Assembly: GCA_038254115.1 (NCBI GenBank)
Contig: JBBSGK010000004.1
Coordinates: 4,227-68,226, forward strand
DNA: 64,000 nt
From: Candidatus Levyibacteriota bacterium
Lineage (GTDB): Bacteria > Patescibacteriota > Microgenomatia > Levybacterales > UBA12049
Direction: 5' to 3'
Shown here in pieces: positions 12,690 through 57,733 of this stretch. Position 1 is the stretch's first letter. The number at the start of each line of letters is the position of its first letter. Made by a program: the position numbers and the translations under genes. The notes beneath the pieces were generated by a model, which was not told the origin of the DNA, made no database searches, and was given only the letters and a program-made list of their open reading frames with translations.

Positions 12690-13256
12690 TTGACCAAGCT
12701 ATTTATTCCAATTCTTCTCGGAACTGTACGCCCCAAGCGTGAATCCATAAAAGCCGCAAATTTGATTGAGAAAGTAGGAAAGACGATTAAGGAGATAGAA
12801 GTTTCATTAGTCGATCCGAAGGATTACAATTTTCCCTACGATGGCAATGATCCTGAGAACAAAGACCCGCGCTATTCAAAGCTGACAAAAAAAGCTGATG
12901 GATTTTTTATAGTGACACCGGAATATAATCACAGCTTTCCCGGAACTTTGAAAAGAATGCTCGACTCAGAGCTCAAAAATTACATCCATAAGCCTGTTGC
13001 ATTTGCCGGTGTTTCCAATGGAATTTTTGGGGGAGCCCGGGCTATTGAATCGCTCACCCATACAGTACGTGAGATGGGGCTTGTTCCTACTTTTTCAGAT
13101 GTCTATTTTCCGCAAATTCAGAATCTATTTGATGAAAAAGGAGAGATAATTGATAAGGGATATGTGAAAAGAATTGAGAGGGGATTTGCCGAGCTGATCT
13201 GGATGAGCAAAGCGTTGAAGTGGGGACGGGAGAATCTGGAAAGTATTTATCACTAA
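12690..13256 (+). CDS. NADPH-dependent FMN reductase (flavodoxin-like fold)
   Basis: ...FFIVTPEYNHSFPGTLKRMLD... is the NADPH-dependent FMN reductase signature. The 3' end (ELIWMSKALKWGRENLESIYH*) is repeated twice downstream. Confidence 0.8.
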   Translation: MTKLFIPILLGTVRPKRESIKAANLIEKVGKTIKEIEVSLVDPKDYNFPYDGNDPENKDPRYSKLTKKADGFFIVTPEYNHSFPGTLKRMLDSELKNYIHKPVAFAGVSNGIFGGARAIESLTHTVREMGLVPTFSDVYFPQIQNLFDEKGEIIDKGYVKRIERGFAELIWMSKALKWGRENLESIYH

Positions 13257-13921
13257 GAAGTTGCAAATTCAGGCATTGGTATATCCGCAAAGCGTGGTAC
13301 AAGTTCAGGATTAAGTTCCGGATCCCGGACAGCTCTATTTATAAGTATCAAAGATTCTGCAACATTTCTTTGCAACTCTTCAATTTGATACCATGGGCTT
13401 TCTTCATCCCCAAGTGTGAATCCAGCACCATTTAGCCCTAGGTCTTGCAGCGATTCACGATCCAAGACTTTACCGTACTGGTGGTCAGAATGGTAATTTA
13501 TTTCATGTAGTGGTGTCTCATCAGGTTTAAAGCTGTAATTAATTGTTATAGTACGCATGTCATCCCACTTCGCATCGTCATAACTAACATTCCTGCTTGG
13601 CCTCCCATAAATTTCGGCAACTATCCTGCCGCTTCCATATAATGGTAAAGTAGCTGCTCCAAGATTAACTGGTGTTGAGAAAGCTCTTTTGTTATCTTCA
13701 TTGCCAATGACTTTTAAAAGATCGATTCCTCCTTCGACTAATGATTGTTGTCTTTCAAGAGCAGCAATTTGAAACCGTCTATCAGCAGGATCAATCTCGC
13801 CGTTTTTGACTTTATGATGAGTTTCTGCTCGTTTGAGATGCACTCTCTTTTCTATCATTTGAGCCCTGAGTCTTTCGGGATTCATAAGTATATAGTATAT
13901 CACATAAATGCAATATAGCAA
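13253..13921 (-). CDS. hypothetical protein (cassette gene 1; Arg-rich)
   Basis: 222-aa ORF, convergent with the FMN reductase, stop overlapping its stop. No family recognised. Confidence 0.55.
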   Translation of the reverse strand: MLYCIYVIYYILMNPERLRAQMIEKRVHLKRAETHHKVKNGEIDPADRRFQIAALERQQSLVEGGIDLLKVIGNEDNKRAFSTPVNLGAATLPLYGSGRIVAEIYGRPSRNVSYDDAKWDDMRTITINYSFKPDETPLHEINYHSDHQYGKVLDRESLQDLGLNGAGFTLGDEESPWYQIEELQRNVAESLILINRAVRDPELNPELVPRFADIPMPEFATS

Positions 13922-13976
13922 TAGACAAATTGCGTTAAGCCAAATATTATTTAGTCTTATAGATTTTTTTAATTAT

Positions 13977-14072
13977 TTTGCCAGGCGAATCGAAAAAGTT
14001 TACACCGAGCTGATCTCGTTGGCAAAGAGTCTGAAATGGGGACGGGAGAATTTGAAAAGTATTTATCACTGA
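13977..14072 (+). pseudogene. degenerate duplicate of the FMN-reductase 3' terminus (fragment B)
   Basis: In-frame fragment RIEKVYTELISLAKSLKWGRENLKSIYH* versus genuine RIERGFAELIWMSKALKWGRENLESIYH*. Roughly 80% nt identity with 13165-13256. No upstream remainder of the gene. Confidence 0.7.
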
Positions 14073-14872
14073 GCATCGGGATCTTGCGGATTCTCTTCAT
14101 CAGAAATTGGATTAAGCATCTCCCGGAGCTTGCGTCTTGCTCTCATCAGTTTTAATCTGACTCCGTCTTCGCTAGTACCGAGAACATCTGCGATCTCTTG
14201 TATTGAAAAAAGTCCACTTTCAACAAGATTGACTACAATACGAGGGTCAAATATGACATGTTCAGTATGGTTTGGTGAATCCGAATCCGCATTATTTTTT
14301 TGTTTTTTATTATAATATTGTTTGGCTACTTCTTCTCCTAAAGCATTTACTCTGGTTTTTAATGTATCTAATTCCGGAATCTCCTCTAAGCTACTGCATA
14401 CCACGTTTAAAGCTTCAATGATATCACTTTTTAGATTACCCCTCCTGGGCAAATGGGGCAAAAGGGTATATCCAGCACTCACTAATAAATCAACGCGGTC
14501 ATGAGGACTTATGGAATCATCTTCAGTTTTAAGTGCTTTCAAATACATCTTTGCTAAAATACTGGGCGCTACTTTTTTTTGATTCAATGGTATCATTTCA
14601 AGTAATTTTAAAGCTCCTCTTCTTTGGCGGATAATCCACGGATTTTCAGTTTGCCCACTTATACCAGAAAGCAACTCTCTAGTTAGATTCGCAGTTTGCC
14701 CGTTTGACCTCTCAGAATAATGATCCAATTCTGTCCTGATACCGCTCATTAGGAGCTTGCGTTTCGGATCGCGTTCATTCAATAAAAGTGATAATAGGCT
14801 ATCTTTTTCTAGGATTCCTGCGACTAAAATACGATGGGGCTGCATTCTTAATTCTTTTCTCTCGTATTGCAT
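14066..14872 (-). CDS. hypothetical protein with a C-terminal sigma-70 region-4-like HTH (cassette gene 2)
   Basis: 268 aa. The C-terminus LFSIQEIADVLGTSEDGVRLKLMRARRKLREML resembles sigma-factor region 4.2. Its stop overlaps the fragment B stop. Confidence 0.55.
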   Translation of the reverse strand: MQYERKELRMQPHRILVAGILEKDSLLSLLLNERDPKRKLLMSGIRTELDHYSERSNGQTANLTRELLSGISGQTENPWIIRQRRGALKLLEMIPLNQKKVAPSILAKMYLKALKTEDDSISPHDRVDLLVSAGYTLLPHLPRRGNLKSDIIEALNVVCSSLEEIPELDTLKTRVNALGEEVAKQYYNKKQKNNADSDSPNHTEHVIFDPRIVVNLVESGLFSIQEIADVLGTSEDGVRLKLMRARRKLREMLNPISDEENPQDPDAQ

Positions 14873-14903: not shown

Positions 14904-14954
14904 ATGTCAAACGGATCGGAGGGAAGGGAGAATTTGAAAAGTATTTATCATTGA
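14904..14954 (+). pseudogene. second, shorter degenerate duplicate of the FMN-reductase 3' terminus (fragment C)
   Basis: MSNGSEGRENLKSIYH*. It matches fragment B at 27 of 28 nt over GGGAGAATTTGAAAAGTATTTATCA. Confidence 0.6.
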
Positions 14955-14958
14955 CTCA

Positions 14959-15621
14959 TCAATTATCATAAACCCTTACTGCAATATCCGGATTTCCGTA
15001 GACTAACGCAGCATCACAAGATCGGAACCAAATATCCAATTGTGTACCGTAACCGTATGTATCATCAATTATAAATCTGTGACCTGCCATCGGACCGGAT
15101 AGGACATCTACATGTGCCCTTTGTGGTTCATCGTTCATGGCAATATCTCCTTCTTTTGCCAATCCCACACCTGAGTTTGTGTCACAATATGCAGTTGATT
15201 TTACAGTACGATCGTGAAAGGTAGAGGATGGATTAGGACTAGAGGCCAACGGATAGGAATCTGTTGTGCTAGCTGAGGTAGGTTCAGTGAAGGTCGGCTC
15301 GGTTTTAGTCGCCGTTTCTTTTGGGGGTGGTGCGGTTATTTCGGGTGAAGCTGTTGGGGGAGGAGCTACAAAAATGGTACTTGTAGATGTATCAGGATTT
15401 ACAAAAATTGTTGTTGAAGTTGGAATTGTACGGGAGGTTGGTTCTACCGCACGCAGGCCTGATGTCACAATAGTTGCACGGTTGTCTACGTGTCTTGCAG
15501 CTGCAACACCTGCGGCTGATTCGGTTAGTGAAACAAATAACATGGCTGAGCGGAATGTTTTTGATCTAAAAAGCCTATTTATCCTATCGGAACGAGCTCC
15601 TTGTTCATGACTTATTCTCAT
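14959..15621 (-). CDS. hypothetical secreted/anchored protein with a Pro/Thr/Ala-rich linker (cassette gene 3)
   Basis: 220 aa. N-terminal hydrophobic segment AMLFVSLTESAAGVAAA, PT-rich stalk, and an approximately 90-aa C-terminal domain. Confidence 0.5.
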   Translation of the reverse strand: MRISHEQGARSDRINRLFRSKTFRSAMLFVSLTESAAGVAAARHVDNRATIVTSGLRAVEPTSRTIPTSTTIFVNPDTSTSTIFVAPPPTASPEITAPPPKETATKTEPTFTEPTSASTTDSYPLASSPNPSSTFHDRTVKSTAYCDTNSGVGLAKEGDIAMNDEPQRAHVDVLSGPMAGHRFIIDDTYGYGTQLDIWFRSCDAALVYGNPDIAVRVYDN

Positions 15622-17788: not shown

Positions 17789-19387
17789 TTATTCCCATCT
17801 CATCGTTGCGGGGGGTTTGGAAGTGATGTCATAAACAACTCTTGAAACATCAGGGACCTCATTTACAATTCTTGATGATATTTGCGCGAGCACATCATAG
17901 GGGATACGGCTCCAATCAGCCGTCATAACATCCTCAGAATCATACGAGCGCACAGCTAGGACTTCTGCATAAACACGGGCGTCTCCTTTGACCGCGGTTG
18001 AAAAGCTTCCTGTCATTACTGCAAAGCATTCAAATACTTTGCTGTATTGGTCTGCTTTTTTCATCTCTTCAACCACTATTTGATCTGCTTTCATGACTTG
18101 TGCAAGCCTTTTTTCTGTGACCTCACCCATTATATTTACCGCATGTCCGGGACCGGGCCAAGGCTGCTGCATTACTATTTCCTCAGGAAGTCCTGAGAGG
18201 CGCCCGATTTCGCGTACTTCATCTTTATAATAAGTCCGGTTGGGTTCGATAAGTTTTAATTTCAAACTCTGAGGAAGTCCTCCGACATTGTGATGGGATT
18301 TGATGTGGGATGCATGCTTAGACCCTTTGGATTCTATAACATCTGAGTAAATTGTTCCCTGCCCGAGGAACTCTGCATCCTTATGCTTTTCTGCAATTTC
18401 CTGGAAGATATCTATATAAAGACTTCCGATTATTTTTCTCTTTTGTTCCGGATCTGTTATTCCTTTTAGCTTGTTTAGGAAACGTGTACGTGCATCAACG
18501 ATCACCAAATTTGCATGTATCAAATCTTTAAAAATGTAACTGACAAGCTGATCTGTGCCGACTCTCATAAGACCTGATTCGACATAGACCGGGATAAGAT
18601 TTGGGCCGATTGCTTTTCCTATCAGAAAAGCTGCAACAGTTGAGTCGACACCTCCTGAAACAGCAGCGATGACTTTACTTGTCCCAACTGTCTTTTTAAT
18701 GTCCGCTATTATTTTTTGCGGATCAAGAGAGAGGGGAACAAGATCCTCTTTACAGATCTTTGCAAAGTTTCTCAAAATTTCCAAACCATAATCTGTGTGC
18801 TGCGCTTCAGGATGAAACTGCACGCCATATAGATTTTTATCTGTGTTTTGGACAGCTGAAAATTCAACTGTTTTGGTGACAGCGAGATTTTCAAAACCCG
18901 GGGGAAGTTTTGTTACAGTGTCGCCATGTGAAACAATAACACTTGAAGTTTGGGGAAATCCATTAAGGATGCTTAATTCTTGATTATTAAGTCTTAATTC
19001 TAACTTTTCAGGTCCGTATTCTTTGGTCGTCTCCTCCACCTTTGCGCCCAATACCTGAGCCATTAATTGCCAGCCGTAACAAATGCCAAGAATTGGTGTT
19101 CCTTGCTCAAAAATCTCTTTTGAAATTGTTGGCGCGCCTTTTTCATAAACAGATGAAGGTCCGCCGGAAAGGATAATTCCCTTGATAGTATCACGGGTAC
19201 CACGTGTAGCACGAGTACCACGAGCTTTTTTCGTTTCTTTCCCGTGATACCCGTGGTACTTTTGATACTCGTGATACTTTTGGAGTGTTTCCTCGGGGTT
19301 TACGTATTCTATTTGGACTCCTATTTGCCGGAGGCGTCTCCCTATGAGGTGAGCAGTTTGTGAGCCAAAGTCAACGATGAGGATCAT
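17789..19387 (-). CDS. guaA: GMP synthase (glutamine-hydrolysing) with an approximately 35-aa low-complexity insert in the amidotransferase domain
   Basis: N-terminal GATase (IVDFGSQ...ILSGGPSS...GICYGWQ), ATP-pyrophosphatase SGGVDS motif, and a C-terminal dimerisation domain. The extra segment YHEYQKYHGYHGKETKKARGTRATRGTRDTIKG is not in canonical GuaA. Confidence 0.93.
   Translation of the reverse strand: MILIVDFGSQTAHLIGRRLRQIGVQIEYVNPEETLQKYHEYQKYHGYHGKETKKARGTRATRGTRDTIKGIILSGGPSSVYEKGAPTISKEIFEQGTPILGICYGWQLMAQVLGAKVEETTKEYGPEKLELRLNNQELSILNGFPQTSSVIVSHGDTVTKLPPGFENLAVTKTVEFSAVQNTDKNLYGVQFHPEAQHTDYGLEILRNFAKICKEDLVPLSLDPQKIIADIKKTVGTSKVIAAVSGGVDSTVAAFLIGKAIGPNLIPVYVESGLMRVGTDQLVSYIFKDLIHANLVIVDARTRFLNKLKGITDPEQKRKIIGSLYIDIFQEIAEKHKDAEFLGQGTIYSDVIESKGSKHASHIKSHHNVGGLPQSLKLKLIEPNRTYYKDEVREIGRLSGLPEEIVMQQPWPGPGHAVNIMGEVTEKRLAQVMKADQIVVEEMKKADQYSKVFECFAVMTGSFSTAVKGDARVYAEVLAVRSYDSEDVMTADWSRIPYDVLAQISSRIVNEVPDVSRVVYDITSKPPATMRWE
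19186..19292. repeat. array of 7 octamer repeats GTAYCACG in both orientations (palindromic), in frame inside guaA
   Basis: Forward copies gtatcacg, ggtaccacg, tgtagcacg, agtaccacg, then inverted copies cgtgatac, ccgtggtac, tcgtgatac. It corresponds exactly to the extra 35 aa in GuaA. Confidence 0.6.
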
Positions 19388-19748: not shown

Positions 19749-20750
19749 ATGAGAACTGAACAGGAAGTAAGAAGAGGTTTGGGACAATATAAGAGAGGTC
19801 TAATAAGGGCAACCTGGGATAATCCTACTACTTTTGATCCTGAAGATGTGCGGCGTCATCTTAGAGCAAAAGGAGTACATAGCACATCACCAATTGTTGT
19901 AATTCCTTATGATATAGAGAGCTTGGATAGAGCCGCTGCAGTAGCTGACTCGTCTGAGTGGCAGGACCCGTTTGTTGTCGGTAAAATAAAGAGTGCTAAA
20001 AGCAAAAGGAAAAAGTTGGATAAAGGCGCCTCAATATATGATATCGGATTTCCCACTGTTTTTTATACAGAGTTGCTCGATTTAGCAGTTGTTATAGACG
20101 ATAGTAAAACAAACGAAGAGTTATTTGGAGAAATTTATTCTAGAGGTGCGTTAATTGAATCATTTGCTCATGAACTTACTCACAGCGCGTTTGCGCCTTT
20201 AACCGTTGTGAGTTTTTCTCCTAAAAACGATTCAGACAAAGTACGGGTAAAATCAACCCATGGTATTGGTCAAGCTAGCGAAACAGTAACTCTAAGTCCA
20301 GGAGCTGGTACTGAAAACCTATATAAACCCGTCTGGATTGATGAAGCGCATGCTGTTAAGTTGGCATCAGAAGTGAGAGGCAACATGGTTCCGGAGTCAG
20401 TTCAGCAAAAGCCATGCGTGATGGAGGAGGAAGAATTTGGTATTGATGAGATAGAAATACCCCCCCCATACCTCATCTTTTCTGAGAGTTATCCGGATGA
20501 ACCGGGGGATGTAGGGGGAAGCGTTGCCGGGGTGGGATTGGATACTCTGGAGACCAAGCGACCTGGATTAATACGTGACATTAATAATCTTACGACAGGC
20601 GGATCTATAGTGGATTTTCACAATAGATTAAAGCATAGTGTTGGGAAAGTTCTTTACAAGGCTATTACAACACGTCAGCCATATAAATCATGGGGAAATG
20701 TTCTTGATCAAATCCTTGATCTTTCTCCATCTCCATCATCAAAGCGCTAA
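19749..20750 (+). CDS. hypothetical protein with an HExxH motif (possible metallopeptidase-like)
   Basis: 333 aa, Arg-rich, containing IESFAHELTHSAF. No confident family. Confidence 0.5.
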   Translation: MRTEQEVRRGLGQYKRGLIRATWDNPTTFDPEDVRRHLRAKGVHSTSPIVVIPYDIESLDRAAAVADSSEWQDPFVVGKIKSAKSKRKKLDKGASIYDIGFPTVFYTELLDLAVVIDDSKTNEELFGEIYSRGALIESFAHELTHSAFAPLTVVSFSPKNDSDKVRVKSTHGIGQASETVTLSPGAGTENLYKPVWIDEAHAVKLASEVRGNMVPESVQQKPCVMEEEEFGIDEIEIPPPYLIFSESYPDEPGDVGGSVAGVGLDTLETKRPGLIRDINNLTTGGSIVDFHNRLKHSVGKVLYKAITTRQPYKSWGNVLDQILDLSPSPSSKR

Positions 20751-21015
20751 ATTTATAGAGCGCAAGGGGAAAGTTGCATAGCCAACTTTATTCTTAACCT
20801 CTAAGATGTCTATATACTTGCAATTAAAGGCTAAAGTGCTATAATATAGGATAATTTTGTATTTAAGCTATAATTAATAAATATGCAGAAAATTTCAAGA
20901 CATGTAAACAATATATTCGCGCTGCGTCACAATTCTCTATACATGAATTCAATTTATATAATGCTGAGTACATTGATGGTGTCTGCAAGAGGATTTTTTA
21001 TTAGCTTTGTTATGA

Positions 21016-21594
21016 GTGATAAGAAAAAATAATATGTATTTAAAACTAATAAATTTTTACATTTCATCCAAATATTTTATTGCACGCGTGAGGTCGATCG
21101 TGTTGGGTTTTAAACCGGAAAACTTCAAAAAGCATATTTACGTTATGCCGCATGTCCTGTTTGAAAACTACCGTCAAATGGATATCGGCTCGTATGTATT
21201 CATAAACCATCACACTGTTTTTTCGACCCCTCACGGCATGAAGATCGGGGACTATGTGATGATAGGGCCATATTGTTTGTTCGCAACAGTACATCACGAA
21301 TTTGATGACTACAAGAGCCCTATGATTTTTCAAAAGCCGCGAATAAGACCAATTGAGATAAGGAAAGATGTGTGGATCGGGGCAAAAGTAACCGTTTTGG
21401 GGGGGGTAACCATTGGTCGGGGAGCAATAGTCGCAGCAGGGGCAGTCGTCACAAAAGATGTTGAGCCTTATTCAATTGTCGGGGGAGTGCCTGCAAAATT
21501 GATAAGATATAGGTTTGATAAAGCAAAAATCCGTAAGGCTTCAATGATTAACTTCAAAAACCTCAAACATCAAAAGACAGATTTATGGGGATAG
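21016..21594 (+). CDS. hexapeptide-repeat (LbH) acetyltransferase, sugar O-acetyltransferase-like
   Basis: The C-terminus VWIGAKVTVLGGVTIGRGAIVAAGAVVTKDVEPYSIVGGVPAKLIRYRF is the left-handed beta-helix acyltransferase signature. The true start may be the internal M (MPHVLFENY...). Confidence 0.8.
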   Translation: MIRKNNMYLKLINFYISSKYFIARVRSIVLGFKPENFKKHIYVMPHVLFENYRQMDIGSYVFINHHTVFSTPHGMKIGDYVMIGPYCLFATVHHEFDDYKSPMIFQKPRIRPIEIRKDVWIGAKVTVLGGVTIGRGAIVAAGAVVTKDVEPYSIVGGVPAKLIRYRFDKAKIRKASMINFKNLKHQKTDLWG

Positions 21595-21607
21595 TTTGGA
21601 GACTTTG

Positions 21608-43340: not shown

Positions 43341-43374
43341 AATAGTATAGCTAACTAATTTGGATAAATTCTTG

Positions 43375-43544: not shown

Positions 43545-43941
43545 CAAGGATAGTATATGGTGGGTGATGTGAAAAGTCAAGGAGAGTTTATGTTATTTTA
43601 ACGTCTACGTCTTTGCTGAAGTCTATCCATTAGGGAAGGAAGCTGAGGATCTTCCGGTGCGCCATTAGCCCGCTCGCTGCGAGTTATCCGTCTAAGTTTA
43701 TGAACAGCGTAGACTGCGCCAAGCGGTACTGTCAGAGTTGCAAATTCAAGGACTTTTAGAGGAGTGATATTTGCCAATTGTTCTTTTCCCATTAATTATG
43801 ATTATATTTCTTTTTTTGAAAAAGTCAACAACACCAGTTCGTACAGGAAGGACCAAACAGGATAAAGCGTTCTCTGTCCTCCTGAGGCCAACAGCCGAAG
43901 GATCTAGATTATTTGTTCCGCTCAGAATGACAAAAGGCTTA

Positions 43942-49441: not shown

Positions 49442-51745
49442 TTATTTTCCCCAGATCTTTAAACTATCTTGTACTTGTTTGTCCTGTAGGTCGATGTTTT
49501 TCAGAATATATTGATATGTATTTATTGCTTTTTGATTATCTCCCACTTCGTGGTAAAAAAGGCCCAGGGCAAAGTATGCATCGCGATAGTCAGGCTTGAG
49601 TTTTATGGTATGCTCCAGGATCTCAATTCCTTTTTTGGGGCCCATTGTTTGTCCTGCAAGTACTCCATAGTTGTAGGATATTTTGGCATCATTTGGCGCA
49701 AGCTCCCGGGCCTTTATGATGGAGCTTAGAGCTTTGCCATAATAATTTTTTTCATTGTCCTTCCCACTCTGCGCAAGTGTATAGAAAAGTCTTACGCGGT
49801 TTTTCCAGTAGACAATATTGTTGGGATGAGTATTTATGACATTGTCACTTATTGTGATTGCATCCCGCGATAACTGAGCTGCTCCTGATGCGTCTTTTTG
49901 AAGATATAAAGCAGATGCCAGGGTGCCCAGATTTATGGATAGTTCATCTTTATAAACAGGCTCATTTGGCTCTGCATTGACCGCGTTTTGGAGAGGGGTA
50001 ATTGCTTCCTGATAACTACCTACTTTATCCAGACTTGAACCATTTGCGTAATTCAGATCAGCGCTCCAGTAGCTAAAAAGGTTCTGAAGGAAGAGAGAAG
50101 AAGTAAGAAGTAAGGCTACTAGCAGAATCCATTGGATGATCGAGGTTTTAGATGGGACAGAAGGCTCATCGGAGACAGAGGGAAAGCTTAATACTTTTTG
50201 GGGATTGAGTATTCCGGATAGTATGAATATGAATGCAGGAATTAGGAAAAAGTAGAGATTGATTATTACAACCGAGAATCCGAAGAAGTTGGAAACCAAG
50301 ATTGAAACCCACCCCGCGAATAGAGCAGTAATCAGAATACTCGGAATACTCAGAGAACCAGTTGATCTGACCTTCAGATTTTCAGATGATCTGAGCGGAC
50401 TGTCATTCTGAGTTTTCAGAGTTTTCTGAAAAACTTGAAAAATAAATAATCCAATGATTGCTAGATAGCTTCCCAGACCAAATGCTCCCGTTGTCGCCAG
50501 ATAATTTAGGTATTCATTGTGGGCCTTGTTGTACAGATAATCCCATTCCGAAGTGACATTGTGTTCCACTGGCCGGTATCTGTAATAGGCAAAAGCAAAT
50601 GTCTCAACACCTGTCCCGATAATCGGATTTGCCTTCCATGCATCTATTGCCCCGCGCCAAACCAAAAGACGGATTTTGCCGGAATCAGTTCCTCCGAGTT
50701 CTCCGGCAGCTGGTAATTCGTGGGTTGAAGTTGGATTTGATGATTTTATTTTGTTCAATTCAGGCAAAGTGAATTTTGAAAGTTGTGAAATAGGAACGCC
50801 CGAAAAGAAATTGAAAACTATAAATATCAGATTGAATAGCAGAAAGTATTTTAGGAAATTTTCTTTGAGATATTTTTTGAAAAATAGTATTGCCCAGAAG
50901 ATAATATTTGCAATCCAAAAACCTATAAAACCGCCTCGTGTATCGGTGTAGGTGAGGCAGGCATAAAATAAAGAAGTAAGAAGTAGGAAGTAAGAAGCAA
51001 GGAAAAAATTTCCTGAACCATAATTCTTGATTCTTGATTCTTGATTCTCATGGGATGATTCTGATTTAGATTTTAGATTTCTTAGAAAGTAGGAAATTGA
51101 AAGAGGTATTAAAACTGACATGTATGCAGCAAGCCAAGCCGGCTGACCAAGAGTTGAGAAGATACGGATTGTGGGTTTGAATGCATCAGTCCAGCATGAT
51201 GTATCAAAACTTCCCCTGAAAATATAACAAGTAGGGTCCCAACCAAAATGGGATGGAAATCCCCAAAGAGCAACAATCAAGCCTGAAAATAAGCTAACTT
51301 TTAAGACTTTAAGTACGTGTTTGGTTTCCAGATTGGAGACAAAGGCGTAGTATAGAAATATATAAGAGATGATAGATAACAGGCCGCCGTTAAATCTTGA
51401 GTAATAACCCCAGAGCGAGACATGCGGATCAAGGGAAAAAATTGTTGAGATTATTTGAGAAGCGAGGAAAAGAATTAGCGGAATATCAAGAGGTGTACGT
51501 TGGATGAAGATTCTTTTTTGAAGAATCATTTTTGCTATCCAGGAAGCGCCGATTATGGTTGTTATTCCAAAAGTAAGCCACATTTTTGGAAATTCAAAAA
51601 GTTCTGAAGGGGATCCGCTAAAAACAATGGGGACTAGGAGGAAGAGGGCGTAGAAGGAGAATTCGATAATGCGGTTGCAAAAATTTATAATTTTCATTAG
51701 CGGGATGATGTACGGCAGATAAAACTTCATTTTCCATGGTATCAT
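49442..51745 (-). CDS. O-antigen-ligase-like polytopic membrane protein with C-terminal TPR repeats
   Basis: 767 aa, at least 12 TM helices with a Wzy_C-like core, then TPR-like repeats (...AINTYQYILKNID...). It contains in-frame heptamer-repeat inserts. Confidence 0.75.
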   Translation of the reverse strand: MIPWKMKFYLPYIIPLMKIINFCNRIIEFSFYALFLLVPIVFSGSPSELFEFPKMWLTFGITTIIGASWIAKMILQKRIFIQRTPLDIPLILFLASQIISTIFSLDPHVSLWGYYSRFNGGLLSIISYIFLYYAFVSNLETKHVLKVLKVSLFSGLIVALWGFPSHFGWDPTCYIFRGSFDTSCWTDAFKPTIRIFSTLGQPAWLAAYMSVLIPLSISYFLRNLKSKSESSHENQESRIKNYGSGNFFLASYFLLLTSLFYACLTYTDTRGGFIGFWIANIIFWAILFFKKYLKENFLKYFLLFNLIFIVFNFFSGVPISQLSKFTLPELNKIKSSNPTSTHELPAAGELGGTDSGKIRLLVWRGAIDAWKANPIIGTGVETFAFAYYRYRPVEHNVTSEWDYLYNKAHNEYLNYLATTGAFGLGSYLAIIGLFIFQVFQKTLKTQNDSPLRSSENLKVRSTGSLSIPSILITALFAGWVSILVSNFFGFSVVIINLYFFLIPAFIFILSGILNPQKVLSFPSVSDEPSVPSKTSIIQWILLVALLLTSSLFLQNLFSYWSADLNYANGSSLDKVGSYQEAITPLQNAVNAEPNEPVYKDELSINLGTLASALYLQKDASGAAQLSRDAITISDNVINTHPNNIVYWKNRVRLFYTLAQSGKDNEKNYYGKALSSIIKARELAPNDAKISYNYGVLAGQTMGPKKGIEILEHTIKLKPDYRDAYFALGLFYHEVGDNQKAINTYQYILKNIDLQDKQVQDSLKIWGK
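50971..51049. repeat. roughly 80-bp imperfect palindromic repeat element: (GAAGTAA)n, spacer, (TTCTTGA)n, in frame in the ligase-like gene
   Basis: aagaagtaagaagtaggaagtaagaagcaagg...aaaaaatttcc...ttcttgattcttgattcttgattctc. A second copy is at 55201-55267, and a half-copy (gaagaagtaagaagtaagg) at 50096-50114. Confidence 0.6.
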
Positions 51746-51746: not shown

Positions 51747-52901
51747 TTGGAAAAACGTGGGCAAGCTGATAGAATAGGTTTAATTATGAATCTCTTGAAT
51801 AGTTTCTACGGTCTTTTTTCTCACGATATCGGTATAGATCTCGGCACTGCAAATACTCTTGTTTTTGTCCGGGATAAAGGGATTGTGATCCGTGAACCGT
51901 CAGTTGTCGCGAGGCAAAAAAAGAGCAAACAAATCATCGCGATTGGAAGTGAGGCCAAGAAAATGCTTGGCAAGACACCTGCTTCTATAGTTACGGTACG
52001 TCCGCTTCATGGGGGAACGATTGCGGATTTTGACGCGACTGTTTCGATGATCGCTTACTACATCAAGCAAGTCCATGAGATGGGGGGAAAATTGACCGGG
52101 ATTTTTGCCCGTCCCAAAGTGGTGATTGGGATTCCATCTGCAGTAACCGAGGTTCAAAGACGTGCTGTCTGGGAAGCAGCTCTCTCAGCAGGAGCCCGGG
52201 AAGCGTATCTTATTGAAGAGCCGATGGCCGCGGCAATTGGTGAGAATATATCAATTTTTCAGTCAAAGGGCATAATGGTAGTCGATATAGGCGGCGGGAC
52301 TACAGAAATCGCGGTTATCTCGCTTGGTGGAATAGTAGTCGGCCGGTCAATGAAACTCGCCGGAGACGAGATGGATCAGGCGATCCTGCATTATGTGCGG
52401 CTTCGCCATGGAATGCTTCTTGGGGAGAGTACAGCTGAGGATATAAAAATAAAAATAGGAAGCGCTGCCCAGAAAAGCGCAAAAGCGCAAAAGCGAAGAA
52501 GCGAAGAAGGGGAAGAAGAGAAGGAAGAGATTAGCCGTACGGCGAAGGTTATGATTGTGAGGGGACGGGATATTGAGACTGGTCTTCCAAAAAGCCAGAA
52601 GATAACTGAGCCTGAAATACGTGAGGCATTATCTCCGATAATCAATCAAATAATTCAAGCCGTTGCCGATGTTTTGGAGGAAACGCCGCCTGAGCTATTG
52701 CCTGATATTCTCGAGCAGGGAATTCTTCTCACAGGTGGGGGCGCCAATTTGGAAGGCTTTGATCAGTTGATGGTTGAACGGGTGCATCTGCCTGTTTTTG
52801 TTTCATCTGATCCGATGACCTCTGTTGTCCGCGGAACGGGAAAAGTTGTGCAGGATGAAAAACTCCTCGAGCGGGTGAAGGTAATTGGGGGATTGAGGTA
52901 G
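51747..52901 (+). CDS. mreB: rod-shape-determining protein MreB (with an approximately 35-aa charged insert)
   Basis: Actin-fold motifs DLGTANT, VIGIPSAVTEVQRRA and DIGGGTTE. The insert QKSAKAQKRRSEEGEEEKEE is encoded by the heptamer repeat (AAAGCGC)n(GAAGCGA)n at 52474-52512. Confidence 0.93.
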   Translation: MEKRGQADRIGLIMNLLNSFYGLFSHDIGIDLGTANTLVFVRDKGIVIREPSVVARQKKSKQIIAIGSEAKKMLGKTPASIVTVRPLHGGTIADFDATVSMIAYYIKQVHEMGGKLTGIFARPKVVIGIPSAVTEVQRRAVWEAALSAGAREAYLIEEPMAAAIGENISIFQSKGIMVVDIGGGTTEIAVISLGGIVVGRSMKLAGDEMDQAILHYVRLRHGMLLGESTAEDIKIKIGSAAQKSAKAQKRRSEEGEEEKEEISRTAKVMIVRGRDIETGLPKSQKITEPEIREALSPIINQIIQAVADVLEETPPELLPDILEQGILLTGGGANLEGFDQLMVERVHLPVFVSSDPMTSVVRGTGKVVQDEKLLERVKVIGGLR

Positions 52902-52921: not shown

Positions 52922-53476
52922 TCATGCAGCCGGATTGAGCGCTATCCTACCGGTACGCAGTCCAAAGAAAAAATCTTCCGCTTTTGCCCGTTCATTTTCT
53001 GTGAGTCTGGCCAGGCTTTCGGCAGTTGAAGCATCAATTCTCGCACCGGTCATCATGATAGGAAGAGCTTCCATTTCGTCTACACTCAATTCACGTGAGC
53101 CTAGAGGAATATGGAATGTTGTTCCGTCTTCTTCTGCAACAACATAAGACTTTCTTTCCATGGATGAAGGTCCAATCCCATCTTTACCAGGAATAGGAGT
53201 AAAGGTTGACTTGACAGTTTGAGGACCATCCTCAAACATTACACCGGAACGTGTTAAACCAACTCCTGCTGTATTTGATTTGGCGTTGGGATCCACATAA
53301 TTGAGGCGATATCCACCATCTGATCCTCTGACTTTTATTCCTTCTTTCGCAGACTTTAAATCTCCTAACCCACCATAAAATAAGCTGATGGCCATTCTTC
53401 TTGCATCATCCTTTCTGCTTTGGTCTGGACTTAGTGGTCTTTCTGGTGAGCTTGCCATAATAAGTGGATGATACAT
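52922..53476 (-). CDS. hypothetical protein inserted between mreB and mreC
   Basis: Start trimmed to the ATG at 53474-53476 (MYHPLIMASSPER...). The longer ORF to 53782 overlaps a plus-strand promoter and ORF. Confidence 0.5.
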   Translation of the reverse strand: MYHPLIMASSPERPLSPDQSRKDDARRMAISLFYGGLGDLKSAKEGIKVRGSDGGYRLNYVDPNAKSNTAGVGLTRSGVMFEDGPQTVKSTFTPIPGKDGIGPSSMERKSYVVAEEDGTTFHIPLGSRELSVDEMEALPIMMTGARIDASTAESLARLTENERAKAEDFFFGLRTGRIALNPAA

Positions 53477-53500
53477 TTTTAATAACAGATTGTCAAGACT

Positions 53501-53531
53501 AGCGGTGAAGGTAATTGGGGGATTGAGGTAG
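53501..53531 (+). repeat. duplicate of the last 31 nt of mreB (29 of 31 identical), distal to the inserted gene
   Basis: AGCGGTGAAGGTAATTGGGGGATTGAGGTAG versus the mreB 3' end GCGGGTGAAGGTAATTGGGGGATTGAGGTAG at 52871-52901. Confidence 0.7.
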
Positions 53532-53534
53532 AGA

Positions 53535-53562
53535 TTGCAAATAAACAAAATTGTGGTAGAAT
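53535..53562 (+). promoter_or_regulatory. sigma-70-like promoter (TTGCAA, 16-nt spacer containing TG, TAGAAT)
   Basis: TTGCAA at 53535-53540, then TGgTAGAAT with TAGAAT at 53557-53562, followed 8 nt later by the ATG at 53571. Confidence 0.35.
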
Positions 53563-53570
53563 GCATTTCT

Positions 53571-53882
53571 ATGGGATTAGAAACACAAGATAGATTGGCA
53601 AGAGAAAGAGTACTTGCTACGCTTACATCAATGTCAAATGATGCATATCCATCAAACACACGGCATATAGCTGAAAGAATGGTTCGAGGCAAACCTACAA
53701 CGGGTGATCTGGTAACTGTTTTTCTTGCGTTGGGTCCACTTGAGGAGGAAGGAAAAGTAGAATCTGTTGTAGTTAGACACACAAATCCGGCACATATTGC
53801 TTATCGATTAACCAGAGAATCAGAGCCAAGACGTAGGCGAAAACGAAATAGAAAATGGCCAATAGAGGAAGTTAGAAGATAA
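53571..53882 (+). CDS. small winged-helix-like protein (PadR-like?) with an Arg-rich tail, hypothetical
   Basis: MGLETQDRLARERVLATLTS...TTGDLVTVFLALGPLEEEGKVESVV resembles the PadR wing (LYPALHRLEEEGLI). The C-terminus is RRRRKRNRK. Confidence 0.35.
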   Translation: MGLETQDRLARERVLATLTSMSNDAYPSNTRHIAERMVRGKPTTGDLVTVFLALGPLEEEGKVESVVVRHTNPAHIAYRLTRESEPRRRRKRNRKWPIEEVRR

Positions 53883-54811: not shown

Positions 54812-55222
54812 ATGGAGATATTATTTTTCATTCTACTTATAATTTCTATTTTCGTGGAATCAACTTTTATAAACTTGCCCCTAGTATTCATTCTTCTGGT
54901 TGTGTTTTGTATCCTCAAAAAAAGCGGCTACGTATTTTTGAGCGCTTTTTTAGCAGGAATTTTACTGGATCTTACAGCAGTCCGGTTTCCGGGAACATCC
55001 AGTATTTTTTTCCTCCTCGTTCTTTTAATGATCATGCTATATCAACGCAAATATGAAATTAATTCTTATCCTTTTATACTTGTCAGCTCGTTTGTTGGAA
55101 CGTATATGTATTTGATTATTTTTAATAAGCATGCTAATTTATTACAGCCATTTTTATGTACCATTTTAGCATTGGTGCTATACTCAGTTCTGCAAATACG
55201 GGAAGTAAGAAGCAATAATTAA
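54812..55222 (+). CDS. mreD: rod-shape-determining protein MreD-like membrane protein
   Basis: 136 aa, four to five TM helices, positioned between mreC and mrdA. Confidence 0.6.
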   Translation: MEILFFILLIISIFVESTFINLPLVFILLVVFCILKKSGYVFLSAFLAGILLDLTAVRFPGTSSIFFLLVLLMIMLYQRKYEINSYPFILVSSFVGTYMYLIIFNKHANLLQPFLCTILALVLYSVLQIREVRSNN

Positions 55223-55284
55223 GAGTTAAGGTCTTGTGGTAAATTTTTCCTTGATTCTTGATTCGTTATTATTAATTCATATCT

Positions 55285-57078
55285 ATGAAAACAGGATACG
55301 CCTTTGGTGAGCATATAAAAACAGAGAAGATCAAAAAAAGAAGATATTCGTCAGGTCCGTCGGATTTTAACTCGCGCGAATTTTTTCTTCCCCTTGCACT
55401 TTTTGGAGCAGCCGTTCTTCTGATATCCAAACTATTTTATCTGCAAGTGGTTAAGGGTTCTGATTTCCGGGCGCTTTCTGATTCCAACCGAATAAGGACT
55501 CAAATTATTCATGCTCCGCGGGGTGCTATATTTGACCGGAACGGTGTCCCGCTTGTAATAAATAATCCGGGATTCAGGCAGGTAAATAAAGACAAATCAA
55601 CAATCTTGACTCGGGATCAGGCGCTGCCTCTTATTGCAAAAGGGGATAAAAATCTCGAGGTAGACTCTCTCAGGAATTATGTCTTAAAAGACAGTCTGAG
55701 CCATGTTATCGGATACATCGGCCAGGTCTCCAAGCCCGAGCTCGATTCAGGGGAGTTTAATGATTACCGTGGTACTGATTGGATAGGTAAAAGCGGAATT
55801 GAGAGGCAATATGAACACATATTGAGGGGCACAGACGGTAAGCAACTGGTTGAAGTCAATGCAATGGGTAATAAAGTGCGTCCACTTGGCACGACCGATC
55901 CAATTTCAGGGCAGGATATCACACTGACGATTGATTCGAAGCTTCAGCAAGTTGTATTTGACGCGACAAAAGATGTAAAAAAGGGCGCTGTTATCGTCTC
56001 CAGCCCGACAGGTGAAATTCTGGCAATGGTTTCGCGTCCTTCTTATGACCCCAATCTTTTTACCCTGGATAAAACTTATAAAGTTGCAACGGATGCAGCG
56101 CATCAAAATGTAAGTGAGATACTTCTGGATTCACAAAATCAGCCGCTTTTGAACAGGGCAATTGCAGGTACATATCCTCCCGGCTCAACATACAAAATAG
56201 TGACAGCCGCCGCCGGACTTAATGAAAATATTATTGATGAGAATTACAAGATACGCGACAGCGGTGTAATAAAAGTCGGGGAGTTTTCTTTTGCGAATTG
56301 GTACTATACGGGTTATGGCAGGACAGAGCCGGGTGAGCTAAATGTAGTCCGTGCACTGGCTCGGTCCAATGACATTTTTTTCTACAAACTTGCTGAAAAA
56401 GTAAGTCCTGACAAGCTATCTGAAATGGCAGTAAAATTTGGTTTGGGAAATAAATCGGGCATTGACTTGGGAGGAGAAGCAAAAGGTTTGGTTCCTACTG
56501 AAAAATGGAAAAAAACTGTAATTGGGGAGGGATGGTACTTGGGAGACACTTATCATTATGGAATAGGACAGGGATTTTTATTGACAACACCTCTTCAAGT
56601 TAATGAATGGACAGAGGTAGTTGCAAATGGCGGGAGTCTGTACGAGCCACATTTGCTGAAAGCTCAAAGTGAAAAGCGCAAAAGCGCAAATATTTTGAAT
56701 GATAAGACGATTTCTTTGATCAGGCAGGGAATGATTGAAAGCTGCTCAACGGGAGGTGTTGCGTGGCCATTATTCAAGTTTAAAGTTCAAAATCCAAAGT
56801 TAAAAGTTGATGGCAAAAATATTTTGGAAGTAAAAGAAGCCAGTGAATCAGCAAAATCTGAAAGCTTGAGAGAGATTGCGGTGGCGTGCAAGACTGGAAC
56901 CGCCCAGCATGGAGGGGAGACGACCCTGCCTCATGCATGGATTACCCTCTTTGCTCCTGCATACAATCCCCAAGTTGTAGTAACTGTTTTGAATGAGGAG
57001 AGTGGGGAAGGCTCAAATGAGGCAGCCCCAATAGCTAAAAAGATATTGGAAGCCTATTTTACAGAAACACCTCAATAA
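55285..57078 (+). CDS. mrdA: penicillin-binding protein 2 (peptidoglycan D,D-transpeptidase)
   Basis: N-terminal anchor, dimerisation domain, and transpeptidase motifs SxxK (PGSTYKIV), SxN (ARSNDIFFY) and KTG (ACKTGTAQ). It contains (AAAGCGC)x2 at 56672-56689. Confidence 0.9.
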   Translation: MKTGYAFGEHIKTEKIKKRRYSSGPSDFNSREFFLPLALFGAAVLLISKLFYLQVVKGSDFRALSDSNRIRTQIIHAPRGAIFDRNGVPLVINNPGFRQVNKDKSTILTRDQALPLIAKGDKNLEVDSLRNYVLKDSLSHVIGYIGQVSKPELDSGEFNDYRGTDWIGKSGIERQYEHILRGTDGKQLVEVNAMGNKVRPLGTTDPISGQDITLTIDSKLQQVVFDATKDVKKGAVIVSSPTGEILAMVSRPSYDPNLFTLDKTYKVATDAAHQNVSEILLDSQNQPLLNRAIAGTYPPGSTYKIVTAAAGLNENIIDENYKIRDSGVIKVGEFSFANWYYTGYGRTEPGELNVVRALARSNDIFFYKLAEKVSPDKLSEMAVKFGLGNKSGIDLGGEAKGLVPTEKWKKTVIGEGWYLGDTYHYGIGQGFLLTTPLQVNEWTEVVANGGSLYEPHLLKAQSEKRKSANILNDKTISLIRQGMIESCSTGGVAWPLFKFKVQNPKLKVDGKNILEVKEASESAKSESLREIAVACKTGTAQHGGETTLPHAWITLFAPAYNPQVVVTVLNEESGEGSNEAAPIAKKILEAYFTETPQ

Positions 57079-57098
57079 AATCTTGCACTTGAATTTTC

Positions 57099-57674
57099 TT
57101 GCCCCCCCTGATAGAATATAGGACTATGAGATTTGAAAAGCAAGATAGAAGACCACATGTAGCAAGGGATGGTCAACGCGGCAGAAGCGAGGAGGGCTCG
57201 GAGCTTCCGGCCGGCCCAAGAAAAAGTTTTTTTGATGCTGTTAACCAAAAGGGTTCTGATATGCGTGATTTAGCCTGCCGAGGGTTACTATATCAGTCAA
57301 CAACTGGCGAGATAACTGTGGGAAGTAATCCCCAAAATGGGCCAAAAGTTACAATAACGGTTGATATTAAGGCAAATCGTGATATGGTGGTTCATAGACG
57401 CATATATCATGATTCCAGCGGCAAGCATCTAAAAAGACATGATGAATTGGAACTTACATCTTCAGACAGGGATCCAGCAACAAGAACTTTCACAAGAATT
57501 AGAATTGAGAGTGAGGATCACATAAGCGGAAAAAAGTCTTTCACCATTGATAATGAGGGACCAGATCAAGTAGTAGACCAAAGCGGTGTAGATTTTGCAA
57601 CAAAAATTCTTAAAGATGCATCCGGTGATTTAAAGCGCTTAATGAGACCTGAGGCATCTGATGAGTTCGCGTAA
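57099..57674 (+). CDS. hypothetical protein (Arg-rich) inserted after mrdA
   Basis: 191-aa ORF, bracketed by the mrdA 3' end and its duplicate. Confidence 0.5.
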   Translation: MPPLIEYRTMRFEKQDRRPHVARDGQRGRSEEGSELPAGPRKSFFDAVNQKGSDMRDLACRGLLYQSTTGEITVGSNPQNGPKVTITVDIKANRDMVVHRRIYHDSSGKHLKRHDELELTSSDRDPATRTFTRIRIESEDHISGKKSFTIDNEGPDQVVDQSGVDFATKILKDASGDLKRLMRPEASDEFA

Positions 57675-57687
57675 CTCTCCCCAAAAA

Positions 57688-57733
57688 GCCAAAAAAATCT
57701 TGGAAGCGTATTTTACAGATCGAAAATAATTGA
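57688..57733 (+). pseudogene. degenerate duplicate of the mrdA 3' terminus
   Basis: GCCAAAAAAATCTTGGAAGCGTATTTTACAGATCGAAAATAATTGA encodes KKILEAYFTDRK*, versus genuine GCTAAAAAGATATTGGAAGCCTATTTTACAGAAACACCTCAATAA (AKKILEAYFTETPQ*) at 57034-57078. Confidence 0.65.

Follow-up and report, generated by a model that had tools for sequence, protein, structure and literature searches.

At four loci in the 64,000-nt stretch of DNA analysed here (the window), those of an FMN reductase (A), a GNAT acetyltransferase (B), a PBP2-type transpeptidase (C) and MreB (D), copies of a gene terminus bracket inserts in the order intact gene, single ORF and truncated direct copy of the same terminus. On balance, this arrangement appears to result from the additive integration, anchored by homology and independent of an integrase, of pieces of 0.6-1 kb that came from related genomes. 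The mechanism class is already known, and the loci are a new natural example of it.

The genome piece is Levybacteria-like (CPR), and its sequence is that of a metagenome-assembled contig. The common design of the four loci, proposed in a preliminary description of the window, was confirmed for each of them by self-comparison and direct reading. There are five terminus fragments over the four loci, every one of which includes the exact stop or start codon of its gene (Table 1). The repeats are 28-120 nt long and 0-29% diverged, with identical runs of 28/28 nt at locus D and of 13-29 nt at loci A, B and C, and beyond the stop or start codon the homology ends, the enclosed ORFs being unrelated to anything at the loci of relatives save for cargo C (see below). 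A tblastn scan with the terminal 40 residues at either end of every ORF (the terminus scan) and self-blastn revealed no further repeat-insert-repeat loci in the window, and the additional orphans listed in the preliminary description carry no flanking duplication in the same scan. Comparable gene-end scars are likewise absent from 142 kb of orthologous regions in relatives, so the suggestion of a general route of gene acquisition in this lineage finds no support there.

Table 1 Terminus copies, bracketed genes and neighbouring features (positions in the window)
Feature	Position	Strand	Remarks
Locus A: intact NADPH-dependent FMN reductase	12690-13256	+	Pfam FMN_red, E 9.6e-22
FMN-reductase terminus copy 1, last ~90 nt	13167-13256	+	Resident gene end
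Cargo A1, 210-aa orphan	13253-13885	-	No Pfam, PHROG or PADLOC match
FMN-reductase 3′ fragment 2	13977-14073	+	In frame as (F)ARRIEKVYTELISLAKSLKWGRENLKSIYH*, own stop
Cargo A2, 268 aa	14066-14872	-	C-terminal sigma-70 region-4-like HTH; Pfam Sigma70_r4_2, E 3.8e-6
FMN-reductase 3′ fragment 3, last 34 nt only	14921-14954	+	GRENLKSIYH*
A3, 220-aa secreted-looking protein after last fragment	14959-15621	-	No Pfam match; singleton cluster
CMAS-type methyltransferase remnant, C-terminal 52 aa	19407-19562	-	Adjoins orphan block 19749-22723
Locus B: GNAT 5′ fragment	37930-38052	+	Own ATG 2 nt past upstream stop (gene 37002-37928)
Cargo B, 279 aa	38076-38915	-	C-terminal chorismate-mutase-II-like domain; Pfam CM_2, E 4e-12
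Intact GNAT (Acetyltransf_8) gene	38985-39524	+	Pfam, E 3e-25
Locus D: intact MreB	51747-52901	+	Pfam MreB_Mbl, E 2e-122
MreB terminus copy 1, last 28 nt	52874-52901	+	Gene end
Cargo D, 184-aa orphan	52922-53476	-	Convergent with MreB; start codon reassigned
MreB 3′ fragment	53504-53531	+	Exact 28-nt copy including stop; VKVIGGLR*
Locus C: intact PBP2-type transpeptidase	55285-57078	+	Pfam Transpeptidase, E 3.5e-58
PBP2 terminus copy 1	57025-57078	+	3′ end of intact gene
Cargo C, 182 aa	57126-57674	+	Same orientation as PBP2
PBP2 3′ fragment	57679-57729	+	In frame as PQKAKKILEAYFTDRK*
DprA, transformation recombination mediator	58790-59914	+	Pfam DNA_processg_A, E 9.9e-72

The FMN reductase of locus A has 2885 homologs, the nearest of which are 77-87% identical. 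In the self-comparison, fragment 2 aligns with the resident end of the gene over 70 nt (87% identity, one gap, E 1.6e-12) and was also recovered in the terminus scan (E 3.7e-11), while the short fragment 3 is 94% identical to fragment 2 (terminus-scan E 0.006). Cargo A1 (Arg 7.7%, GC3 0.29) is convergent with the FMN reductase, the stop codons of the two genes overlapping within a 4-nt CTAA, and has only itself as a match among 1.84 billion representative proteins. The stop codon of cargo A2 falls within fragment 2; A2 has only five homologs, all weak (28-33% identity), and the one with a readable neighbourhood, P0133, is located in an accessory region adjoining ParE/Phd toxin-antitoxin genes. 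The PHROG and PADLOC searches gave a single match, between the HTH of A2 and a sigma-factor PHROG. Neither self-comparison nor the terminus scan found a fourth terminus copy beyond A3, which in the proposed mechanism would be the original neighbour of the FMN reductase and not an insert, with two ORFs having been stacked before it through two successive events. The locus had been described as an insertion recurring three times in series; there are indeed three terminus copies, one intact and two fragmentary, but only two ORFs are bracketed by them.

At locus B the copied terminus is the 5′ end. The GNAT fragment matches the intact 5′ end (38985-39107) over 104 nt at 87% identity (E 1.5e-24; terminus scan E 3.7e-14) and carries a TAC to TAA nonsense change in the codon at 38026-38028; the intact ORF opens at 38964, with the ATG corresponding to the start of the fragment located at 38985. 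Cargo B is divergent from the intact GNAT gene and found only itself in a search of 5.8 billion proteins. Because the best GNAT relatives in a metagenome scan are at most 43% identical, the gene is not a conserved core gene, and the earlier characterization of the host genes as housekeeping does not extend to this locus. The PBP2 fragment of locus C matches the resident end over 40 nt at 85% identity (terminus scan E 0.005). The sole homolog of cargo C, P0132 (35% identity, E 1.4e-15), is located between PBP2 and DprA in the relative L096, and an AF2 model of cargo C (pLDDT 67.6) predicts an alpha/beta fold for which structural comparison gave no informative match. The dprA gene of the window lies outside the scars themselves and provides context for the proposed route. 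At locus D, the ORF 52922-53782 resolves into two genes, 52922-53476(-) and 53571-53882(+), of which the former, cargo D, matches only itself among 1.84 billion representatives and has no family in Pfam, PHROG or PADLOC.

In searches covering 1.8-5.8 billion proteins, the bracketed genes proved to be orphans or near-orphans, and their composition is distinct. In 35 Pfam-positive genes, arginine accounts for 4.1% of residues, versus 8.2% in the bracketed genes (p 2e-5) and 10.9% in the other orphans of the window (p 2e-6), and lysine for 9.0%, versus 4.8-5.8% in the two orphan groups. The GC content is not significantly different (0.420 versus 0.404, p about 0.2), GC3 is lower in the orphans (0.28-0.31 versus 0.36; p 0.01 and 0.002) and GC2 is higher. 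The claim that these genes are Arg-rich and Lys-poor is therefore borne out (p about 1e-5), whereas the accompanying claim of a higher GC content has to be corrected, as GC is similar and GC3 is lower. The bracketed genes have no match to phage, plasmid or defence families in PHROGs, PADLOC or plasmid/phage collections. No circular, plasmid, phage or viral carrier of the cargo, for which a search had been proposed, was found among viral contigs, plasmids and phages; nor was an empty site or donor allele found for any cargo in a genome-collection scan for PBP2, in the FMN-reductase contexts or in the metagenome scan for GNAT, and exact-protein look-ups of GuaA and cargo B returned no record.

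The equivalent intervals in relatives are similarly variable. Those between mreB and mreC, pbp2 and dprA, and the FMN-reductase gene and guaA are occupied in each relative by different, unrelated small genes, most of them Arg-rich, or by toxin-antitoxin pairs. Moreover, a convergent neighbour lies 0-6 nt past the FMN-reductase stop codon in relatives, and the stop codons of A1 and A2 likewise overlap the terminus copies; judging from this geometry, the units of terminus plus ORF look like natural Levybacteria junctions. A gene-end remnant is also present elsewhere in the window, where the C-terminal part of a CMAS-type methyltransferase is 63% identical over 52 aa (tblastx) to the intact gene in the relative L006 and no intact copy exists in the window, and where, in the closest relatives, an S8 peptidase comes immediately after GMP synthase. 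Lying beside an orphan block, this 3′ remnant documents additional illegitimate joints within genes.

In the proposed mechanism, the incoming DNA would be a piece of approximately 0.6-1 kb consisting of a gene end and the adjoining accessory ORF from the orthologous locus of a diverged relative, with the gene-end homology serving as the only anchor for the integration of each piece. The resident gene would be kept or rebuilt intact, mostly using the incoming end, and the recipient's own terminal 28-120 nt would persist beyond the new ORF as a remnant. The route might be either a Campbell-type insertion-duplication, with a single crossover of a circularised fragment, or homology-facilitated illegitimate recombination (HFIR), with the illegitimate joint located within the recipient gene a short distance upstream of the terminus. 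As in the former, direct repeats flank the insert at all four loci with one copy complete and the other truncated, and as in the latter, a homologous anchor is present on one side only with heterologous DNA beyond it. The Campbell-type crossover invoked in the preliminary description is accordingly consistent with the one-sided homology-anchored product, but HFIR gives the same product and no circular carrier was found. The fragment boundaries have short shared strings, AGCGG at D, CCCCAA at C and GG at A3. The length and divergence of the anchors make them unfavourable for RecA-type recombination, and since all fragments are short though both routes permit long ones, trimming or selection has to be added as an assumption. 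The donors appear to be related Levybacteria and not distant foreign sources, because the fast-evolving family of cargo C occupies the same slot in a relative; on junction geometry and cargo C alone, A1, B and D would presumably also originate from a relative's orthologous locus. The presence of dprA in the window makes natural transformation a plausible means of entry, and we infer that the process would depend on RecA and DprA, as we infer the identity of the donors.

A different reading is that the units are miniature single-gene cassettes inserted site-specifically by a recombinase encoded elsewhere or by a helper, with an att core in the gene end and a replacement terminus carried along, which we regard as unlikely. 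The intact gene would then contain attL and the fragment attR, the serial stacking at locus A would be typical of repeated integration, and a core-like segment could be seen in the 34-nt block that is common to all three FMN-reductase copies at 91-94% identity with only about 59% homology in the flanks, as well as in the 28 identical nucleotides at locus D. The terminal 28-mer of MreB is, however, conserved across species anyway (27/28 identical in the relative L001), and the four repeats have no obvious common core, as judged by inspection only. As ordinary chromosomal neighbours do, the cargo ORFs overlap the stop codon or lie directly against it, and related cassettes are absent from viral, plasmid and phage collections and from 1.84 billion proteins. 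Pfam scans of all window ORFs of at least 100 aa detected no integrase, transposase or tyrosine/serine recombinase, upholding the preliminary description in this respect and counting against an integrase-mediated island. In such islands, exemplified by phage 21 and e14 in icd, tRNA islands and tycheposons, an integrase mediates gene-end integration with a replacement end; the loci resemble them in the intact gene with a supplied terminus, the displaced attR-like copy and the tandem arrays produced by repeated integration, and differ in the lack of an integrase, in inserts below 1.1 kb with one unrelated ORF each, and in the use of both 5′ and 3′ ends. An IS, MITE or transposon was rejected, because the insert ends lack terminal inverted repeats, no transposase was detected, and the repeats are 28-120 nt long and mostly diverged.

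Quite improbable, too, is an origin in which slippage or unequal crossing-over duplicated each gene end in situ together with its neighbour, after which the extra ends would have decayed and the enclosed ORFs would have diverged very fast or arisen de novo. The copies at locus A lie at similar distances from one another (816 and 882 nt), and orphans without homologs are expected if the genes are very fast-evolving or young. The bracketed proteins are nevertheless dissimilar although the much shorter repeats flanking them are still 80-100% identical; a tandem duplication of the ORFs was rejected on the grounds that all-against-all BLASTP found no similarity among the bracketed proteins and phmmer, with the slot genes of relatives included, no paralogy apart from that between cargo C and P0132. 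The sequences of the fragments themselves point in the same direction. The protein encoded by FMN-reductase fragment 2 is 72-75% identical to the orthologs in the relatives L006 and L015 and thus nearer to these outgroups than to the resident end (61%), and it retains the frame, the stop codon and the family-consensus residues; at the nucleotide level, 64/90 positions are identical to the resident end, with 59-73/90 being the range between orthologs of different species. The PBP2 fragment has four synonymous codon states in common with the ortholog in the relative L004 that are missing from the resident end, and its tail TDRK* has the family-typical form, whereas the resident tail ...YFTETPQ* is atypical within the family. 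Differences in the fragments are enriched for synonymous and conservative changes with a synonymous share of roughly 45-50%, which could also arise if one copy is selected and the other drifts; between the GNAT copies, 8/15 differing codons are synonymous versus 19% expected (p 0.003). The previous interpretation of the copy divergence as that of two alleles is supported, and the FMN-reductase and PBP2 fragments resemble normal orthologous ends and not decayed copies of the resident end, two diverged alleles having been juxtaposed. This comparison of allele origin covers loci A and C, as GNAT has no close orthologs and the copies at locus D are identical. Sliding-window identity showed no mosaic signal in the intact FMN reductase and PBP2, because the relatives are too distant (65-80% nucleotide identity). 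Finally, an assembly chimera, in which slot variants of co-occurring strains were concatenated by the assembler at shared gene ends, might be imagined for a metagenome-assembled contig in a lineage with strain-variable slots but is highly improbable, as an independent Logan assembly (k=31) of the single run SRR24807095 agrees with the contig at loci A, C and D (0 mismatches), every fragment begins mid-gene beside unrelated sequence so that the junction is required in real reads, and the copies at A, B and C cannot link de Bruijn paths because their exact common runs are only 13-29 nt.

Two further systems share some traits with the loci. Integron cassette arrays resemble the serial single-ORF units of approximately 0.8-0.9 kb with a recurring short sequence at locus A, yet what recurs there is the FMN-reductase coding end, with no attC-like hairpin; an integron array was rejected as there is no IntI or attI and the folding of the repeats as ssDNA is not better than that of shuffled sequences (z +1.4 to -1.1). 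In the TR/VR pairs of diversity-generating retroelements (DGRs), which are common at gene 3′ ends in CPR, a near-copy of a terminal segment similarly lies close to a gene, but one of the loci here involves a 5′ end, no reverse transcriptase family was matched, and the mismatches involve all four bases and are not adenine-specific, so that a DGR was likewise rejected.

Laboratory work has characterised homology-anchored integration well, both as single crossover of a circularised fragment and as HFIR. To our knowledge, its scars in natural genomes have rarely been documented, and we know of none from CPR bacteria. In Campbell-type insertion-duplication, homologous end repeats likewise flank the insert as a complete and a truncated copy with no element-encoded recombinase, and single crossover of recircularised DNA left homologous-end duplications of 109-950 bp in 56/60 E. 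coli recombinants (PMC3240628), a range that overlaps the upper end of the lengths found here. In contrast to these, the loci described here represent natural events in an uncultivated CPR genome, have shorter repeats with 0-29% divergence, contain single-orphan inserts with two events stacked on one gene, and show no circular intermediate. HFIR, described in A. baylyi, S. pneumoniae and P. stutzeri (PMC3240628), similarly involves a one-sided anchor, approximately 1 kb of foreign DNA and an illegitimate joint, has no recombinase of its own and depends on DNA uptake. Natural competence in CPR bacteria was first demonstrated in 2023. Saccharibacteria, which belong to CPR, undergo comEC-dependent natural transformation, com genes are conserved across CPR (PMC10633639), and dprA is present here. 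While classical HFIR products delete recipient DNA, the loci here retain a terminal remnant, and HFIR would require the joint to fall inside the anchor gene, 28-120 nt from its end, every time.

If the proposed integration is correct, the gene-end remnants would offer a direct, countable signature of the entry of single orphans into conserved operons like mreBCD-pbp2 free of mobile-element machinery, and given closer genomes they would permit both dating and donor inference. A tentative possibility is that Levybacteria-type CPR build up their orphan-rich variable slots by accreting single accessory genes one after another, like cassettes but free of an integrase, at conserved gene ends via very short homeologous anchors, the genes being acquired as short DNA pieces from diverged relatives. 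Each event would then leave a datable gene-end remnant, and the Arg-rich orphans in the slots of every relative would have such accretion as one of their sources. The remnants would in that case preserve a readable genome-wide history of natural transformation in a phylum that is uncultivated.

The repeat-insert-repeat architecture claimed in the preliminary description was borne out by sensitive self-blastn, a repeat finder and direct reading of the sequence at four loci in the window, where copies of the terminus of an FMN reductase (locus A), a GNAT gene (B), PBP2 (C) or MreB (D) bracket ORFs. The GNAT 5′ fragment is 87% identical to the intact gene over 104 nt and contains one nonsense codon. 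A single long ORF at 52922-53782 was rejected as an artefact that fuses ORF D to the antisense strand of a distinct small gene located at 53571-53882. Scanning the window with the terminal 40 residues from both ends of each ORF gave matches at these four loci only, and the same terminus scan found no out-of-ORF terminal fragments (E < 1e-3) in 142 kb from ten related loci; the proposed general route of gene acquisition is thus not matched by comparable scars in the relatives.

Coordinates of the features in the window and of Arg-rich slot ORFs in the loci of relatives (L numbers)
Feature	Position	Strand	Locus	Remark
FMN reductase, intact	12690-13256		A
ORF A1	13253-13885	-	A	stop overlaps terminus copy
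Second copy of FMN-reductase last ~90 nt (fragment 2)	13977-14073		A	in frame ARRIEKVYTELISLAKSLKWGRENLKSIYH*, own stop
ORF A2	14066-14872	-	A	stop overlaps terminus copy
Further copy of FMN-reductase last 34 nt	14921-14954		A
ORF A3	14959-15621	-	A	beyond last terminus copy
GNAT 5′ fragment	37930-38052		B	ATG 2 nt past upstream gene's stop
ORF B	38076-38915	-	B	between GNAT fragment and intact GNAT
GNAT gene, intact	38985-39524		B
ORF D	52922-53476	-	D
mreB last 28 nt, exact copy	53504-53531		D	past ORF D
ORF C	57126-57674		C
PBP2 3′ end copy	57679-57729		C	PQKAKKILEAYFTDRK*, directly past ORF C
Big_3_5 protein, 963 aa	2427-5318	-
guaA	17789-19387	-
CMAS-type methyltransferase remnant, C-terminal 52 aa	19407-19562	-		directly upstream of guaA
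S8 subtilase	22834-24468	-
S8 subtilase	59925-61760	+
Arg-rich slot ORF	L001 7921-8622
Arg-rich slot ORF	L002 8099-8602
Arg-rich slot ORF	L004 5840-6400
Arg-rich slot ORF	L006 277-1047
Arg-rich slot ORF	L006 5372-6040
Arg-rich slot ORF	L006 8574-9245
Arg-rich slot ORF	L096 1885-2382

At loci A and C the copies can be polarised against relatives. Fragment 2 is identical to the resident reductase end at 64/90 nt, a value within the 59-73/90 seen between interspecies orthologs, and its protein is 72-75% identical to the ends in relatives L006 and L015 and 61% identical to the resident end. At positions where different permitted residues occur in the resident end, it carries the family consensus (RR, Y, T, AKS and K). 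Since the frame, the stop and the consensus states would not persist in a local copy drifted so far, two FMN-reductase alleles are juxtaposed. At four codons the PBP2 fragment has the synonymous state of the L004 ortholog and not that of the resident end, and its C-terminal tail, TDRK*, resembles those of the family (TKR*, TK*), whereas the resident gene ends in ETPQ*. Duplication in situ followed by decay is contradicted by these polarity tests and by the unrelated ORFs, whereas the enrichment of synonymous codon differences (8/18 at A, 8/15 at B and 4/8 at C; about 20% expected) could, taken alone, equally arise from one copy being under selection while the other drifts. No close GNAT orthologs were found, so locus B is not polarisable, and nor is locus D, where the MreB 28-mer is 27/28 identical in L001. 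Only the last 34 nt of the three FMN-reductase terminus copies are unusually similar (91-94%), which could reflect a crossover zone or later gene conversion.

No paralogy was found among the bracketed genes. Exhaustive HMMER searches of 1.84 billion representatives returned self-matches only for A1 and D, one homolog for C (P0132, 35% identity) and five weak homologs (28-33% identity) for A2, which contains a sigma-70 region-4-like HTH; the only one of the five with a readable neighbourhood, P0133, lies in an accessory region adjoining ParE/Phd. ORF B has a CM_2-like C-terminus, and a search of 5.8 billion clustered proteins recovered nothing beyond B itself. The bracketed genes present in the collection, from which the exact sequence of D is absent, all form singleton 90% clusters; PHROG and PADLOC searches gave no informative match, and no relatives were found on viral contigs, plasmids or phages. 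The moderately confident structure model of C predicts an alpha/beta protein, for which no informative structural neighbour was found. P0132 is located between PBP2 and DprA in the relative L096, and these two flanking proteins share 75% and 74% identity, respectively, with their counterparts in the window. C is thus a fast-evolving slot resident in the lineage and not a distant import, which speaks against a foreign source for this cargo, described at first as foreign-looking.

The corresponding slots in the relatives are variable. The mreB-mreC interval ranges from 165 to 1240 nt; small Arg-rich ORFs occupy it in L001, L002 and L004, the last of which also has two small Lys-rich ORFs resembling a toxin-antitoxin pair. 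The pbp2-dprA interval of 487 to 2563 nt contains other unrelated genes, with pilin-like ORFs in L003, a desaturase in L096 and likely a putative toxin-antitoxin pair in L004. Between the FMN reductase and guaA, the closest relatives have a convergent histidine kinase, sometimes together with Rce1. A 223-aa Arg-rich orphan and an NRPS-like gene occupy this interval in the complete Candidatus Levybacteria chromosome OY970292.1, which matches the window at 86% identity in MreB and 79% in PBP2. In every relative's case the stop of the FMN reductase lies 0-6 nt from that of its neighbour, and the same tight spacing recurs in all terminus-plus-ORF units at locus A.

A compositional comparison of 35 Pfam-positive genes with the 6 bracketed ORFs and 8 further orphans upholds only part of the initial view that the cargo is Arg-rich and more GC-rich. 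Arg makes up 8.2% of the bracketed group and 10.9% of the further orphans, versus 4.1% in the Pfam-positive genes (p = 2e-5 and 2e-6), and Lys 4.8% and 5.8% versus 9.0% (p = 0.001 and 0.002), but GC is 0.420 in both versus 0.404 (p about 0.2) and GC3 is 0.306 and 0.284 versus 0.361 (p = 0.011 and 0.002). The orphans have raised GC2 and over-use AGA, TTA and ATA codons. The Arg-rich, Lys-poor signature is also present in unrelated small ORFs of the relatives' equivalent slots; the family-less slot ORFs contain 7-19% Arg and 1-8% Lys and are mutually unrelated, whereas the conserved family-less genes of those same relatives are Lys-rich, so Arg-richness tracks orphan status across the lineage.

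The window has 40% GC and belongs to a Levybacteria-like CPR genome. Pfam annotation of its ORFs of at least 100 aa identified ribosomal proteins, NusG, guaA, PEP carboxylase, lipid-kinase and PAP2 genes, fmt, def, and, ahead of dprA and topA, an mreB-mreC-mreD-pbp2 cluster. The methyltransferase remnant, 63% identical to the intact gene in OY970292.1 and without an intact copy in the window, reveals another joint within a gene; it borders an orphan block (19749-22723) that is absent from the closest relatives. The adjacent guaA has an in-frame low-complexity insertion …YHEYQKYHGYHGKETKKARGTRATRGTRDT… at 19187-19278, encoded by 9-nt periodic repeats, and its GMP synthase is 532 aa long versus 505-526 aa in relatives. 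The S8 subtilase paralogs, with a fervidolysin-like prodomain, are 37% identical, and one of the two directly adjoins guaA in relatives. In the Big_3_5 protein, 9-nt periodic Gly-rich repeats make up a GC-rich region in which GC reaches 54% (especially 3943-4026 and 4233-5150). A 42-nt stretch is duplicated exactly in tandem, a 66-nt repeat has its copies 357 nt apart, and the protein resembles a repeat-variable surface protein.

A 184-nt intergenic element with the GC-rich palindrome GCCTGCCGGCAGAC occurs at 10530-10713, adjoining orphan 10132-10503, and at 30824-31005 (81.5% identity), with a partial inverted match at 10848-10907, and might represent either a hitherto undescribed small RNA or a small repeat element. 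The stretch 43372-43588 is about 70-80% identical in nucleotides to L001 (1-164) and L002 (388-607), with matches in all frames, and overlaps two small Arg-rich minus-strand ORFs (43355-43540 and 43598-43792); it represents either small conserved, perhaps ribosomal-like, genes or an unrecognised RNA. Neither sequence had an Rfam match at E<=1. AT-rich, partly palindromic intergenic repeats (GAAGTAAGAAG / CTTGATTCTTGATTC) at 47208-47237, 50086-50115, 50973-51047 and 55202-55278, also intergenic in L001, L002 and L004, possibly represent terminator-like or REP-like elements specific to the lineage.

Among the further alternatives (ALTERNATIVES), an assembly chimera is an unlikely source of the loci, as a second assembler agrees and the copies share no long k-mers. 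Loci A, C and D are reproduced in Logan contigs with zero mismatches, and an FMN reductase identical to the window's is encoded both by an NCBI MAG contig and by Logan contigs from run SRR24807095. Integrase-mediated mini-islands are unlikely, as the window has no recombinase, inspection revealed no obvious common core and the cargo abuts stop codons as ordinary neighbours do. Integron cassettes are rejected by the lack of IntI and attC-like hairpins, a DGR by the lack of a reverse transcriptase and by mismatches that are not adenine-specific, and an IS or MITE by the absence of terminal inverted repeats. Integrases, transposases, recombinases and reverse transcriptases all went undetected in the Pfam scan, confirming the absence of the first two as initially reported.

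The product at the four loci fits the outcome of one-sided, integrase-free, homology-anchored integration; this part of the original interpretation is supported, and its attributes "GC-rich", "foreign", "housekeeping" and "general route" either fail to fit or are not demonstrated. The order produced would be the intact gene, the incoming ORF and then the remnant of the recipient's terminus. A circularised fragment could enter by single crossover, or homology-facilitated illegitimate recombination (HFIR) could place an illegitimate joint within the recipient gene; in an E. coli assay built to detect HFIR, single crossover of circularised fragments was dominant (56/60 recombinants, 109-950 bp duplications; PMC3240628). 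At the FMN reductase, two successive events would account for both the three copies of the terminus and the three ORFs, A3 being the original neighbour. Very short, diverged anchors and the shortness of every remnant count against such integration; no donor allele or empty site was found for the loci, and no mosaic signal was detectable. The DNA may plausibly have entered by natural transformation: dprA is present in the window, comEC-dependent transformation occurs in CPR Saccharibacteria and com genes are conserved throughout CPR (PMC10633639), and alternative pairing in transformation leads to duplications (PMC3784515). While this class of mechanism is already known, the window provides a natural, serial, multi-locus example with orphan cargo in a CPR genome, which is new.
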